From an uncultured Acidobacteriaceae bacterium (GTDB lineage: Bacteria; Acidobacteriota; Terriglobia; Terriglobales; Acidobacteriaceae), in NCBI GenBank assembly GCA_964246765.1, contig CAXTRW010000002.1, forward strand, positions 1-58,101: a stretch of DNA of 58,101 nt, read 5' to 3'. Position numbers and translations under genes: made by a program. The notes beneath the pieces were generated by a model. The model was not told the origin of the DNA. It searched no databases and saw only the letters and a list, made by a program, of their open reading frames with translations. Below are positions 4,208-38,947 of the stretch, piece by piece; within the stretch, counting starts at the first letter, position 1, and every line of letters starts with the position of its first letter.

Positions 4208-4537
4208 TTACGCACCCCAGAGCCAGCTAAGGACATTGCCCGCCAGCACCGCGATTCCGGTTCCAGCTGCTACCCCGGCAAGGCCCTTTTTCGCTCCCGG
4301 TTCACCGTGCGCGTAAGCGTAGCCGCCAATCACAATGGCAATCAGCGATGCTGCCTTTGCAATGGTGCCGGTGAAGAGCGTTTGCATCTGCGAAATGCCG
4401 CTGTCGAACGGCGATGCGTGTGCCGATAAAGGAAAGAGGCAAACACACAGGAGTAAAGCTCCCGCGCGCGATAGAAGCAGTCTTACGCGCTCAGATTGCT
4501 TACCAGTGAGGGTGATTCGACTGCAAAACATTAGCAC
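4208..4537 (-). CDS. virB2: TrbC/VirB2 family conjugative pilin
   Basis: Long signal ending AHA-SPF, two hydrophobic helices; first gene of the virB2-3-4 block. Confidence 0.85.
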   Translation of the reverse strand: MLMFCSRITLTGKQSERVRLLLSRAGALLLCVCLFPLSAHASPFDSGISQMQTLFTGTIAKAASLIAIVIGGYAYAHGEPGAKKGLAGVAAGTGIAVLAGNVLSWLWGA

Positions 4538-4658
4538 CTCCAGCGACCGTCTTCAGTCGCGATGTGCTTGAGACTAGGATCGCGTTTCGTTGAAGTCCAA
4601 TACTTCTTGGCTATGCACGCATAGCTCTCGCCTATGCACCCCCTTACAAGCTCAGTTC

Positions 4659-5644
4659 TCAGCCGAAAATGGGAAGTTGGTTTGGCAGATCCACATTGAC
4701 GACTCCGTTCGGCTTCTTTCTGTTCTTCATTTCAGCTTCGTCCGCGCACAGCTTCGCCAAACGATAGGTAAGTAGCGGCAGCACAGGTCGTTGTTGTGCG
4801 GGATGACAGATTAGAGCCGTTTTCACCTGGAGTGAAACACCTGCGATACTGCGTCGCGTAAGATCTGGATCGAGCGGGGCACTCTCTCGAACCAGACCTA
4901 GCCCAGCGCCGATTTTCACCAAAAACTGCGTGTCGGCGGGAGCCGAAACAAATTCTGTGGGAGAAAGGCGAATCTTTGCCTTGGCAAACTTCCGAATCAA
5001 TTCGTCATAAAACAACGGGTGATAGCTCCGGGCGAACAGCACACGGAGCCGGTCTCCGACGAGATTTTTAGGGATGGCTTGTTCGCGAGCAAGCGGGTCG
5101 TCCCGACGCAGACAAACCAAAAGGCGCTCGACACACACGCGATGCACGAAGAGGTTCGACTCGCCGACCGGCATGCTCACGAGGGCAGCATCCAGATGAC
5201 CTTCCGCAATCATTTTCACAAGAGGTGCGGAACACTCGCTGGACGGATTAATGCGACCGTTTGACACGAGTTCTCGATAGCCAATCAGGGCTTCTTGCAC
5301 CAGGTGATGATCAACGAATGGCGAATAGCCAAAGCGAAGAGGAAGGTCTACCCCTGCGTGTAATGAGGATGTGGCCTGAACGGCGCGTTCTCTCATCTGG
5401 AGCAGCCGCTTTGCCTCCTCCAAGAAGGCACGACCGGCGAAGGCACGACCGGCAGGCGTGAGCTCTGCCCCAGCTCTCCCTCTCAGGAACAGCGTCGCGC
5501 GTATGCGCCCTCTTCAAGTTTTTTGATTTGAGCGCTCAACGATGGCTGCGCGACATGAAGCCGTTGCGCGGCTCGACCGAAATTGCACTCTTCGGCGACT
5601 GCAACGAAATAACGGAGATGGCGAAACTCTGGCCCGTCATACAT
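4659..5644 (-). pseudogene. LysR family regulator, frameshifted
   Basis: ATG 5644 gives a LysR HTH ([40 protein letters not shown]), then TGA at 5485-5483. The continuation ([22 protein letters not shown]...) and the substrate-binding domain are in another frame; the span is 3n+2. There is also a 15-bp tandem duplication at 5424-5453. Confidence 0.85.
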
Positions 5645-5790
5645 ATAGCACCTACTCTTGTTGCATTTCAGCCGTAATCTTCGGCGAGCCGTAGGCGACG
5701 GACTTCAATGGGAGGTTTGCCATTGGTGGTTACCCATCCCGTTTTAGGTTCGACGAATTATGAACTGCAGGACTGGCAGTTTCGGAGGGT

Positions 5791-6021
5791 GTGGAAGTGA
5801 ATAAAAAACCAGTTCAGTCGGTGCAAGCAGTGCAGAGCAGGTTCGTAGATATTGAACCGCTCTATGACACCCGTGAAGTGGCGTTACAGTGCAAAGTGTC
5901 TGAGAAGAGTCTTCACCGCTGGGCTCGATCCGGGAAGATTCCAGCCGTGAAGTTCGGAAAGCTCTGGAGATTTCGCAAATCTGCAATCGATGCCTGGCTC
6001 GATTCCAAACTGGCGAGCTAG
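5791..6021 (+). CDS. Excisionase-like helix-turn-helix protein (HTH_17)
   Basis: LYDTREVA...LHRWARSGKIPAVKFGKLWRFRKSAIDAWL; GGAGG upstream; directly before the integrase. Confidence 0.88.
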   Translation: MEVNKKPVQSVQAVQSRFVDIEPLYDTREVALQCKVSEKSLHRWARSGKIPAVKFGKLWRFRKSAIDAWLDSKLAS

Positions 6022-6086
6022 AGATTTCAACTGGCGGCCAAAGGCCCCGATGCCTTATTCTTAGGTCGGGTCACCCGTTCCGCCGA

Positions 6087-7259
6087 ATGGAGAAGTCTAT
6101 GAAGCGGATGCGGTATCAGCAAGGCACACTCAGGTTGGAAGAACGTGCGAATGGCAATCGCGTGTGGGAGTACCGCTGGTACGAAACACAGATCGACGGT
6201 ACTCGCCGTCGGCGCAGCGCTATGGTGGGAACGATCCAGGAGTTTCCATCCGAGTCAGCTGCACAAAGAGCCGTTGCCGCGCTTCGAGCAAACGTCAACG
6301 CCGAGAGTCCTCGTACACAGATCGACGCGATTAGCTTCAGCACGCTTGCAAGCCACTATCGCGAAAAAGAACTGTGCGAGGGAGCAGGCAAAACCGTCGC
6401 CACCATCAAAACGAATGAAGGCTATCTGGAGCGGTGGATTCTGCCGCGCTGGTCTTCGTATCGCTTGAAGGACGTCAAGGCTGTGATTGTGGAGGAATGG
6501 CTCCGGTCATTGCCCTTGGCGAATGGCAGCAGGGCAAAGATACGCAACCTCATGCATTCGATTTTCAATCACGGGCTACGCTGGGAATGGCACGACAAGA
6601 ACCCGATTACGCAGGTGCGTCAAAGCGCCAAGCGGCAAAGAGTTCCGGTCGTGCTGAACATCGAGCAGATCAAATCAATGCTCGAACATCTCAAGGAGCC
6701 TGCAAAAACCGCGGTGCTCGTTGACATTCTCACAGGGCTTCGCGTGAGCGAACTGCCGGCGCTGAAATGGTCGGACGTGGACTTTGAGAATCTCTCTCTT
6801 CACGTCACCCGTTCCATCTCCCTACAGCATGTCGGCCCGTGTAAAACGGAGGCATCACAGAAGCCGGTTCCGCTCGATCCAGAACTGGCTGAAGTGTTGC
6901 TGATGTGGCGCAGGCACTCGGCATACCCGATGGATGATGATTGGCTATTCGCCAGCCCTGCGAGCCAAGGCAAGCGTCCCTATTGGTCCTCCTCGCTTTT
7001 TCGCGTGTATCTCCGGCCCGCTCTCAAAGCCGCGAAGGTGACAGGCAAAGTAGGATGGCACACGTTCCGCCATTCCTACGCGACCATCCTGAAGTCGCAC
7101 GGGGAGGACGTGAAGACAGTACAGGAGTTGCTGCGGCATGCCAACAGCAGCGTCACACTCAACCTCTACGCGCAGGCGGTTACCGAAACAAAACGCAGCG
7201 CGCAGAGCAAGATTGCGAGGCTCGTATTTTCCTCGGGGAAAGTGCCGCTCTCGGAATGA
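6087..7259 (+). CDS. Tyrosine recombinase/site-specific integrase
   Basis: GLRVSE, HTFRHS, LLRHAN, LNLYAQ catalytic motifs; ends 67 bp from the tRNA 3' end. Confidence 0.95.
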   Translation: MEKSMKRMRYQQGTLRLEERANGNRVWEYRWYETQIDGTRRRRSAMVGTIQEFPSESAAQRAVAALRANVNAESPRTQIDAISFSTLASHYREKELCEGAGKTVATIKTNEGYLERWILPRWSSYRLKDVKAVIVEEWLRSLPLANGSRAKIRNLMHSIFNHGLRWEWHDKNPITQVRQSAKRQRVPVVLNIEQIKSMLEHLKEPAKTAVLVDILTGLRVSELPALKWSDVDFENLSLHVTRSISLQHVGPCKTEASQKPVPLDPELAEVLLMWRRHSAYPMDDDWLFASPASQGKRPYWSSSLFRVYLRPALKAAKVTGKVGWHTFRHSYATILKSHGEDVKTVQELLRHANSSVTLNLYAQAVTETKRSAQSKIARLVFSSGKVPLSE

Positions 7260-35893: not shown

Positions 35894-35914
35894 GCAGGCT
35901 CCCTGCGATCAGAA

Positions 35915-35943
35915 GCGGGAAGGCCGACCACAGGCCTTCCCGC
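35915..35943. terminator. Hairpin between clpB and the convergent insert
   Basis: GCGGGAAGGCC-GACCACA-GGCCTTCCCGC; no strong U-tract. Confidence 0.6.
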
Positions 35944-35964
35944 GGGCCTCTGCATCAGCGCTGT

Positions 35965-36582
35965 TCACTGCGCCTTCGGCGCGGGTGCAAGCAGTTTCAT
36001 TCGTTTGTAAGTTTGAAACATCGACGGGTCGGGTTCCTGCCCGGTCTTGATGTTTGTCCACTCCCGGCTCACGTGCGCTTTCATCTCGGCCGTCGGCGGA
36101 AGGTCTGTTTCTTCTCGAATCTCCGGCATCTGCAAGCCGGTCGGATGCCAAATGCGGCCGATCACGTTTCCCTTGCTGTCCTTCATTGGAAGGATTTGGC
36201 AAGGGTAGCCGTCGATCGTGGCTTCCGCAAGTACGAGGGAAGCGGGAACGGTCATCTCCTTAGGAGATGGAGGCGGACTAAGTGTGCGCCCTTGGACGGC
36301 TGTTCCGCTATCGTAATTCAAAAAGTAGAAAGCCTTGCCGGACATACTCATGAGACGGCCCGCGTGCTTCTGTGTGCCTCCCTGAATTGTGTCGGTGTAG
36401 GTGAGCAGTGTCGAGCCGTCCGAGCTTCGGTAGAACTTACCGGTAAGCTCATGGCGCTCTTTGGTCCCATTGCTGTACACGATACTCTGAGTTTCCTTGT
36501 AGTCCGAGGTGATCGGGAGCCATTGCGCGTACGCACTTCCAGATAGAGCGAGCGCAGCGAACAAAAGAATTGTCTGTCGCAT
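35965..36582 (-). CDS. Secreted beta-rich protein (DUF4412/LolA-MucB-like, tentative)
   Basis: AAAGGAG RBS, signal peptide ending AYA-Q, GKFYRSSDG, TIDGYPC, TNIKTGQEPDPSMF. Confidence 0.75.
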   Translation of the reverse strand: MRQTILLFAALALSGSAYAQWLPITSDYKETQSIVYSNGTKERHELTGKFYRSSDGSTLLTYTDTIQGGTQKHAGRLMSMSGKAFYFLNYDSGTAVQGRTLSPPPSPKEMTVPASLVLAEATIDGYPCQILPMKDSKGNVIGRIWHPTGLQMPEIREETDLPPTAEMKAHVSREWTNIKTGQEPDPSMFQTYKRMKLLAPAPKAQ

Positions 36583-36595
36583 GATTCGTTCTCCT

Positions 36596-36859
36596 TTATG
36601 CACACAGGCAGCAGCCTGTATCTATGGTGTAGCTGCCTCCGCACCCGAGACAGAGACAGGTGGCGTACGCTTCGCCGCAGCCGCCGCAGGACGCCTGGCC
36701 CAGACAGTATTGGTTCGTGATGAAGCAGTCATTCCCGCAACTGCCGAAGGCGGGACATTCCTGAGAAACCGCGGCCGGTAGATACATTGCCACGCCAAGT
36801 GCAAAAGCAGTTGCGAGGAGCGCTGTGGGTCGGTTCCGTACTTCCTTTCGAATGAGCAT
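36596..36859 (-). CDS. Secreted cysteine-rich peptide (87 aa, 12 Cys)
   Basis: AAGGAG RBS, basic then hydrophobic signal, mature QECPAFGSCGNDCFITNQYCLGQASCGGCGEAYATCLCLGCGGSYTIDTGCCLCA. Confidence 0.75.
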   Translation of the reverse strand: MLIRKEVRNRPTALLATAFALGVAMYLPAAVSQECPAFGSCGNDCFITNQYCLGQASCGGCGEAYATCLCLGCGGSYTIDTGCCLCA

Positions 36860-36910
36860 AGGGATGCTCCTTATGGATGAGATAGTCACAATTTTTTGTG
36901 ACGCGAAGAA

Positions 36911-36938
36911 AATATACCCGTAGGGGAAAAAAAATCAA
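36911..36938 (-). promoter_or_regulatory. Putative sigma70 promoter with a T8 tract running into the spacer
   Basis: TTGATT-16 nt-TATATT on the minus strand; A8 run at 36927-36934 on the plus strand. Confidence 0.55.
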
Positions 36939-37008
36939 GACCCTGTCGAAATCGGTGTAGCGTTCGACTTCTCTAGAGTTTTAAGCCCGCAAACTTTGAC
37001 CCCAGCGC

Positions 37009-37929: not shown

Positions 37930-38463
37930 ATGCACCCAGAGCAGCAAACACTGCTGGGAAGATTAAAAAACGAACTGACCGACTATGCTTGCCTAAACTT
38001 GCATGGTGCAATGCCGCGTGGAGCGGGGACGGCCTTGCTCACCAAGTTTATCTGCAGGTGGGCGCGGCGGGAAAAACTCTCTTGCGTGCGCGAGGTTCAC
38101 CTGGGCGCTTTTCGCCAAGTCGACGCGGACAATGACCGCCGCCGAGGTCTCGTCGATTTCCTGCTTAGCAATACGTTCGCAATTGAACTGGACAGTTCCA
38201 ACAAGCGATGGTCGCTTGCCAAGCTCGAACATGCAGCGACTGCGGGTTATGTCGCCGTTTGGATCCGCTGGCATACTCCGAACCGCATAGCAGTGCCGCC
38301 CTTCGTACACCTGATCAGCTTGCCAGTCAGAGCCGCCGGGAGAAGAACCCGCTACGAACGATACTTGCCGCCCGGGCCTGCGACGAATCCGCTGCCTGCG
38401 TCGGAGCTACTGCCCACGGCTCGCGTAACTCGCTCATCCAGAATGCGATTAACAAGTTCTTGA
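37930..38463 (+). CDS. Putative PD-(D/E)XK-like nuclease
   Basis: REV...RRGLVDFLLSNTFAIELDSSNKRWSLAKL...WIRW pattern; antisense to the surrounding operon. Confidence 0.55.
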   Translation: MHPEQQTLLGRLKNELTDYACLNLHGAMPRGAGTALLTKFICRWARREKLSCVREVHLGAFRQVDADNDRRRGLVDFLLSNTFAIELDSSNKRWSLAKLEHAATAGYVAVWIRWHTPNRIAVPPFVHLISLPVRAAGRRTRYERYLPPGPATNPLPASELLPTARVTRSSRMRLTSS

Positions 38464-38705
38464 AGCACGGGCTGCCTCTTCTGGACGTCTTCCGCGGAAA
38501 AAGGTCCGAATGAGTTCTCCCAGACATGCATGACCGCTGTTGAGACTCGTTCGCTGGTCAGCTGGTCGTCGCCGAGCTGTTCCAATGCGAACTGAATTTC
38601 GCGAGCCTCGTCTGAGTACTCGTCCTCGGGAGCGCCCACCGCGAGCAGGCCTTCCATGTCTTCGGCTCGTAAGATCGCGTCCACTGCCGCTACCGAAACC
38701 GTCAT
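38352..38705 (-). CDS. Putative immunity/antitoxin protein (DUF1871/YugE-like, tentative)
   Basis: Acidic; EDMEGLLAVGAPEDEYSDEA...VWENSFG; GGAGG RBS and ATGA overlap with the upstream gene stop. Confidence 0.7.
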   Translation of the reverse strand: MTVSVAAVDAILRAEDMEGLLAVGAPEDEYSDEAREIQFALEQLGDDQLTSERVSTAVMHVWENSFGPFSAEDVQKRQPVLQELVNRILDERVTRAVGSSSDAGSGFVAGPGGKYRS

Positions 38706-38947
38706 TTCTGCCTCCACCATGCGGTAATCAGCTTACCCGCGTTTCTGCCGGCTGTCTCCAACACCGCCGTCAAGCCGTTTGTACCTGTGTATACGCTTTG
38801 CGGCGTCCCGTACTTGCCTATTTGGAACTCGACCTGGCCAGTCTTTCTTGCGCTGTCGATTGCCTGCTGCACATCCTGGGGCGAGTAGCTGCGGCTTGCA
38901 CTGCGGACGTCGCCATGCCTCGTATTGCCAGTATATTCCCCGGCCAC
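38702..38947 (-). CDS. Putative small RNase toxin (DUF4258/colicin E5-like, tentative)
   Basis: TRHGDVRSASR...VQQAI...G...VY...GLTAVL...GKLITAW; GGAGG inside the prfA 3' end, 9 nt before the GTG. Confidence 0.65.
   Translation of the reverse strand: MAGEYTGNTRHGDVRSASRSYSPQDVQQAIDSARKTGQVEFQIGKYGTPQSVYTGTNGLTAVLETAGRNAGKLITAWWRQK

Follow-up and report, generated by a model that had tools for sequence, protein, structure and literature searches.

A conserved two-gene module, apparently undescribed, was found in a window of 58,101 nt (the whole stretch of DNA that was analysed) from a member of the Acidobacteriota. The cassette lies on the minus strand between clpB and prmC. Its first gene encodes a Cys-rich mini-protein that is likely exported and disulfide-rich; its second encodes a partner protein which, judging from its structural model, belongs to the LolA-fold superfamily. 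The module is real: the pair recurs in further copies in the same genome and at homologous loci elsewhere. The partner probably binds its cognate mini-protein.

Layout and insertion site of the cassette

The mini-protein gene (P0001, ORF 1, 36596..36859, minus strand) encodes 87 aa and is preceded, 7 nt ahead of its ATG, by the ribosome binding site AAGGAG (36867..36872, minus strand). A predicted signal of 32 aa (36764-36859, minus strand) is followed by a mature part of 55 aa (36599-36763, minus strand) that contains 12 Cys, with CxxC, CxC and a terminal CCxC, four Asp or Glu, and neither Lys nor Arg. The partner gene (P0002, ORF 2, 35965..36582, minus strand) encodes 205 aa with a predicted cleavable signal of 19 aa and a single Cys, Cys128. 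Its own AAGGAG (36591..36596, minus strand) overlaps the stop codon of P0001, 13 nt separate that stop from the ATG of P0002, and the spacing between AAGGAG and ATG is 7-8 nt for both genes. With this stop/RBS overlap, translation of the two genes is likely coupled. Both ORFs, their ribosome binding sites and their Cys contents were thus recovered as the original prediction had described them; the Sec-type signals were called by eye, from a basic n-region, a hydrophobic core and the motifs A-V-S|Q and A-Y-A|Q, the bar marking the cleavage point.

The prediction that the pair has its own promoter and a 3' hairpin held in part. The partner gene and clpB converge, and a GC-rich hairpin with an 11-bp stem lies between their stop codons (35915..35943, minus strand), but it has no T-run and was not called as a terminator. 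The 72-nt stretch containing it had a z of -2.1, equalled by 4 of 200 shuffles, and the hairpin is a possible shared terminator of partner and clpB. The sigma-70-like promoter match, TTGATT-16-TATATT (36911..36938, minus strand), is weak, with 9/12 consensus positions; two promoter-type sites of this quality occur in 3 kb, versus 0.5 expected. The stretch from the promoter match to the RBS contains a perfect palindrome with 7-bp arms (36885..36902, no strand assigned), considered as a possible operator. The exact form TCACA-N6-TGTGA occurs only once in the genome, and a conserved operator is unsupported, as a match with up to two mismatches is found in just 4 of 31 cassettes, that of the window counted.

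As predicted for a pair between clpB and prmC, GC content is lower than in the surroundings: 58.7% for P0001 and 55.7% for P0002, versus 64.4% for the genome. GC3 is 0.63 and 0.66, respectively, against a median of 0.80 and a 5th percentile of 0.63 among 1366 long ORFs of the genome. Neither protein has a family match in Pfam or NCBIfam. Word-index protein searches with P0001 and P0002 matched only the proteins themselves and a single-protein search recovered none of 60 relatives; only profiles reached the partner family.

clpB and prmC are convergent at the cassette site, and could be placed on one contig in 24 congeners. In 10 of these the interval is 0.9-1.1 kb shorter, corresponding to an empty site, and in the other 14 it carries inserts of different sizes. 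The cassette is an insertion at this variable junction. Its DNA was matched in none of 36 congeners, on which the partner profile gave just two weak, partial matches. Homologous cassettes are patchy and inserted at unrelated sites, and the cassette was likely acquired horizontally.

The clpB-prmC junction as such (window 35894-37008) is an insertion hotspot, ranging in congeners from empty to about 1.5 kb longer than here. Nearby, the prfA-prmC interval (window 37993-38947) contains three small ORFs of lower GC (105, 122 and 81 aa) with no Pfam match. At one homologous locus (L084:1333-3477) an insertion-sequence-like ORF separates an intact Cys peptide from a truncated partner.

Pairing of the two genes and features of the mini-proteins

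Two more paralogues of the partner, with 29-31% identity, are encoded in the same genome, and a signal-bearing Cys-rich ORF lies directly upstream of all three copies. A profile made from the three copies gave 229 clusters at 50% identity (E<=1e-3) and matches in 30 of 401 genomes of the class. From the fetched loci, 121 distinct partner-like ORFs were kept and split by profile score, ignoring their neighbours. The close group comprised 83 partners, 19 of which were removed (partial, below 70 bits, or with less than 400 nt upstream), leaving 64. A partner was counted as paired if an intact ORF with a signal and at least six Cys was located directly upstream or fused to it.

Such an ORF was present for 31 of the 64 full-length close homologues, all with at least 400 nt of upstream sequence. 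In one genus the partner is expanded; pairing there amounts to 9 of 31, compared with 22 of 33 for the remaining loci. In a sister subfamily, recognised by the motif RDxxGRxRxE, only 2 of 38 members were paired, both with implausible, shadow-ORF-like peptides, and 67 of 3762 background ORFs (1.8%) met the same definition. Because an upstream Cys-rich ORF is found at 3/3 copies in the genome and at 31/64 homologous loci, compared with this background, the pairing is beyond chance, although the fetched loci are kin and a non-random sample, so that the counts overstate independence. The check proposed with the original prediction, to look for such an ORF at partner homologues, therefore came out in its favour.

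For 33 of the 64 partners no intact peptide was detected upstream, and therefore the partner can persist alone. Twenty-two of these are in one genus, nine of the 22 being thioredoxin-fused copies, none of which (0/9) has an upstream peptide. Broken peptide remnants precede about six further partners, a pattern of joint decay. At a metagenome locus (L091, protein P0034), signal, 10-Cys peptide, a linker of about 30 aa and partner are joined in one frame, with no RBS ahead of the internal ATG. This type of fusion is a single case, with two contigs on record, and could have arisen by stop loss. Peptide type tracks partner clade in a quick tree, where the window partner is on a long branch; such concordance is expected from linkage alone. 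Among 301 genomes of the class, a peptide profile found only its four training loci and two weak, stop-ridden matches. As support this recovery is circular, the profile having been trained on those loci, but the 301 genomes yielded no peptide copy lacking a partner.

Some loci depart from the simple layout. The third cassette copy of the genome (G000:C22 17367-18657) encodes a peptide with a C-terminal extension of about 55 aa beyond the common CCL end; after this copy come tRNA-Ser and an integrase-like remnant. In one genus a thioredoxin-like domain (WCxxC) is fused to the partner and the upstream peptide is lost (L009, L011/L077, L012, L014, L015, L066, L067, L068, L072); genes for ECF sigma factors, BlaI/BlaR1-M56 and further redoxins are near several of these copies. 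Upstream of one cassette (L136:6303-7747) there is another signal-bearing ORF rich in Cys (153 aa), then a secreted ORF of 334 aa, neither with a Pfam match. Elsewhere in the host genome (G000:C151, ~4320-6690, minus strand), an 84-aa ORF with a signal and 8 Cys lies directly behind a membrane-anchored thioredoxin-like CxxC ORF and a 515-aa secreted ORF; the partner profile detected no LolA-type partner there.

In total, 33 intact peptides with 6-12 Cys were collected from 28 genomes or contigs. An alignment of the 13 closest peptides has four Cys without exception (C13, C20, C51 and C52) and two more, C26 and C41, each in 12 of them. The expected conservation of Cys spacing was therefore seen as a six-Cys core among close relatives, but the framework differs between partner clades, in others of which the peptides end in GCxC and have a different Cys spacing. 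The number of Cys is even (6, 8, 10 or 12) in 29 of 32 peptides, the one contig-cut peptide being omitted; hand correction of two signal-peptide Cys exchanged one odd and one even count and left the total unaltered. Even parity favours disulfides over metal clusters, since paired gain or loss is what disulfides predict. It agrees with the predicted exported, disulfide-rich mini-protein and disfavours the metal-binding variant of that proposal.

The defensin-like variant was not supported. Defensins and other cationic antimicrobial peptides have a net cationic mature peptide; unlike these, mature P0001 is devoid of Lys and Arg, and most members of the family are neutral or acidic. Asp plus Glu equal or exceed Lys plus Arg in 30 of 32 peptides, His is rare and aromatic residues are common.

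In all of 10 close peptide pairs, none of which includes P0001, pN was lower than pS, which indicates that the peptide ORFs are coding and under purifying selection. Non-Cys identity of the peptides was lower than partner identity in 9 of the 10 pairs, and no dN/dS above 1 was found among close pairs where the ratio was computable. A look-up of sequencing runs listed none for the locus, which has no bearing on expression. A knottin would show cystine-knot connectivity; the model of P0001 (pLDDT 56, pTM 0.31), too weak for assigning a fold, suggests three beta strands, with a hairpin at the end. Foldseek with this model gave nothing at E<=1e-3, and its Atlas scores were all below 0.8.

Fold of the partner and relation to known systems

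The model of P0002 (pLDDT 93) is an 11-stranded half-barrel of the LolA/EPDR/RseB type, and the idea of a dedicated partner with a carrier-type fold was borne out to this extent. After the signal its only helix is a short C-terminal one (186-194), and there are no lid helices. Foldseek retrieved LolA at E 2e-5 among 41 matches at E<=1e-3; structural Z scores for the top nine matches were 11.9-10.3. Compared with LolA, ependymin-related proteins, VioE, MucB and RseB, Z was 9-12 at 7-11% identity. Only one of 128 partner members has a lipobox and one a late hydrophobic segment; on these features and the model, the partner is likely exported and soluble, with an open half-barrel. Strand alternation, read as a sequence pattern and not from model coordinates, revealed no clean hydrophobic face of the lipid type. 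A long proline-rich loop is located at about 101-118.

Cys128 is kept in 120 of the 128 members and Arg52 in about 92%. On the neighbouring strand Cys128 is accompanied by Cys145 in 72 and by Trp145 in 48 of the 128, which suggests core packing rather than catalysis. A covalent bond between peptide and partner through Cys128 was considered and rejected, as peptide Cys counts are even with one-Cys and two-Cys partners alike.

P0002 fell outside LolA proper and DUF4412 by sequence, and outside RseB/MucB by domain content and gene context. The LolA_like family PF17131 matched one of the 128 partner members, at E 0.005 only, and did not match P0002; no partner member matched an NCBIfam LolA model. 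DUF4412 (PF14371) and DUF2092 (PF09865) each matched one of 128 (E 4e-4 and 2e-3, respectively) and not P0002. P0002 resembles Atlas clusters, some named DUF4412, with feature scores of 0.94-0.95; DUF4412 was named in no paper of the literature searched. When the partner profile was run against PDB sequences, the best E was 0.14. Locus scans with a deep alignment, and with the A3 alignment on genome contigs, yielded no usable pattern; tighter alignments recovered five loci each.

P0002 shares an 11-stranded curved sheet with LolA/LolB and ependymin-related proteins (8v1k, 6f3z, 6jla, 8i34; Z 10.7-11.7, rmsd 3.8-4.7 A over 150-160 residues, 7-10% identity). Unlike LolA/LolB, the partner has no lid helices and is accessory and patchy, and its putative client mini-protein has no lipobox. 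MucB and RseB (PDB 6jau and 2v42) have a LolA-like half-barrel as well, with Z of 10.3 and 8.9. They are periplasmic, and the protein on which they act is encoded by the gene immediately before their own (PMC7400510 for MucB), an arrangement that we propose here also. The differences are that P0002 is a single domain lacking their C-terminal domain, at 8% identity; that its upstream gene encodes a signal-bearing Cys-rich mini-protein and not a membrane anti-sigma factor; and that no sigma gene is present at the window locus, P0002 standing behind the mini-protein gene and prmC.

A deep profile at phylum level collected mostly the sister subfamily, which was taken as a control. In Acidobacteriota its members often have two genes ahead of them, one for an ECF sigma factor and one, anti-sigma-like, for a single-pass membrane protein. 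Among 28 proteins picked by hand from about 55 upstream candidates, sigma-70 domains were matched at 11 loci and zf-HC2 anti-sigma domains at two; by these domain matches, the gene order is that of rseA-rseB and mucA-mucB. This large RDxxGRxRxE family (L036-L064, L116-L119) is unnamed in Pfam, with two members scanned, and some members have EF-hand-like insertions by eye. It is a probable single-domain analogue of RseB/MucB.

The original prediction had recognised no RiPP class at the locus, and the neighbours bear this out. We scanned 104 neighbour proteins, 101 from 22 homologous loci and three from the window; two of the 22 are thioredoxin-fused loci that lack a peptide, and the set was reached by leaving out some 30 short or doubtful ORFs and adding seven. 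The neighbours are housekeeping, metabolic or mobile-element genes, different at each site. No MNIO/DUF692, DUF2063, radical SAM, LanM/LanC, YcaO, C39 exporter or MauE was recurrent among the 104, nor was any outer-membrane exporter, processing peptidase, delivery system, or metal regulator or exporter. One unrelated radical SAM gene is on the opposite strand at L142, and MacB/FtsX permeases occur at two loci. The host genome (96% complete) has no match to MauE or DsbB; it has three VKOR and two DsbA-like genes, so a general oxidation route exists in the host.

Two published types of cassette invite comparison. Bufferins (PMC11626156) are also small Sec-exported bacterial peptides with conserved Cys; their Cys become thiooxazoles, and they need MNIO (DUF692) and DUF2063, neither of which was found among the 104 neighbours of the present cassettes. 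In mauE-mauD-mauA and related MauE-dependent folding, a disulfide-rich exported small protein likewise has dedicated helpers (10.64898/2026.03.05.709764); here no MauE was found in the genome or among the 104 neighbours, and the helper has a predicted LolA fold. No published account of this pair was found, in a search of literature largely outside subscription.

Proposed role of the pair

We propose that the cassette is self-contained, with both products likely exported by Sec. The Cys of the mini-protein would form internal disulfides, six in P0001, made by the general DsbA/VKOR route of the host, which we propose because the cassette brings no oxidase of its own. Docking on the concave sheet of the partner would be through the aromatic beta-hairpin at the C-terminus, with its final CCxC or GCxC; held there, the mini-protein would be shielded from mis-pairing and proteases. 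The mini-protein would be the variable, functional part.

That the partner binds its mini-protein specifically as a dedicated periplasmic holding chaperone or carrier is a reading to which we give a little less than an even chance. It is suggested by the pairing, the stop-RBS overlap, the in-frame fusion, the joint decay, the fold class and the Cys parity. Against a mini-protein carrier weigh the lipid cargo of most LolA-fold proteins, the half of the partners that occur without an intact peptide, and the single occurrence of the fusion. A precedent is offered by MucB, which protects MucA from proteolysis while one MucA helix enters the half-barrel cavity (PMC7400510). The precedent is partial, because that helix is described there as a plug with a minor role in recognition, which is mainly by another MucA helix; in addition, MucB has a C-terminal domain, absent here.

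Several features would suit an effector-immunity pair, in which the mini-protein antagonises other bacteria and the partner binds it and protects the producer: the order effector then partner, the peptides varying more than the partners outside their Cys, the patchy occurrence at unrelated sites with three copies in one genome, and the many partners left alone or with broken peptides, like orphan immunity genes. We nevertheless consider it unlikely, since most of the peptides are neutral or acidic, P0001 itself being free of Lys and Arg, the 104 neighbours share no recurrent outer-membrane exporter, processing peptidase or delivery system, no ratio of dN/dS exceeds 1 where computable, and an in-frame fusion is odd for a released toxin.

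A permanent heterodimer is doubtful too. The mini-protein would then be a swappable, disulfide-stapled lid or specificity subunit completing the open LolA-fold pocket, and the pairs would be variable ligand carriers or sensors. Yet an intact peptide is lacking for about half of the partners, the proline-rich loop could itself cover the sheet, like loop L7 of EPDR1, and there is no known ligand. In favour of a heterodimer are a partner model devoid of lid helices and of an RseB-type C-terminal domain, the linker fusion at L091, coupled translation, which would fit a 1:1 stoichiometry, and the termini of EPDR1, tied to the same fold by disulfides (PMC6363788).

It is very unlikely that the mini-protein is an exported metal chelator of metallothionein or bufferin type with the partner as carrier. 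The density of 12 Cys per 55 aa, the CxxC and CxC motifs, the acidic character, and the ability of Sec-exported Cys peptides such as bufferins to buffer copper (PMC11626156) would fit, but Cys parity, the few His, the aromatic beta-strands and the lack of recurrent MNIO/DUF692, DUF2063, metal regulator or metal exporter genes do not. A RiPP-like pair with the partner as catalyst on the peptide, either a VioE-like scaffold or a single-Cys thiol catalyst, is most improbable: the fold is common to VioE (Z 10.6), Cys128 and Arg52 are well kept and nine copies are fused to a thioredoxin-like WCxxC domain, but the Cys128-residue 145 pair looks like core packing and no thioredoxin-fused copy has a peptide upstream.

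The chaperone or carrier reading can be extended, more tentatively still. An RseB/MucB-type half-barrel, freed from anti-sigma control, may have become a dedicated clamp for conotoxin-sized, disulfide-stapled mini-proteins, each matched to its partner. Such pairs would pass between genomes as units of two genes, with roles as variable effectors outside the cell or exchangeable specificity lids, and the cassette would be the minimal form of a widespread undescribed class. The combination of a mini-protein with a soluble LolA-fold partner, and no third gene, is built on a known fold, and its function is what we infer. The cassette is directly testable in E. coli, because it is shorter than 1 kb and no other linked gene is needed.

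Most known secreted proteins that are small and dense in disulfides come from animals, plants and fungi. Bacterial ones are missed by RiPP mining, having no modifying enzyme to give them away; the partner profile does mark such mini-proteins, and with it 28 genomes or contigs yielded 33 intact peptides of 6-12 Cys. Should the partner prove to be a dedicated folding clamp, the range of the LolA fold, with lipids and anti-sigma tails, would come to include folded disulfide mini-proteins, and the clamp might aid the production of multi-disulfide peptides.
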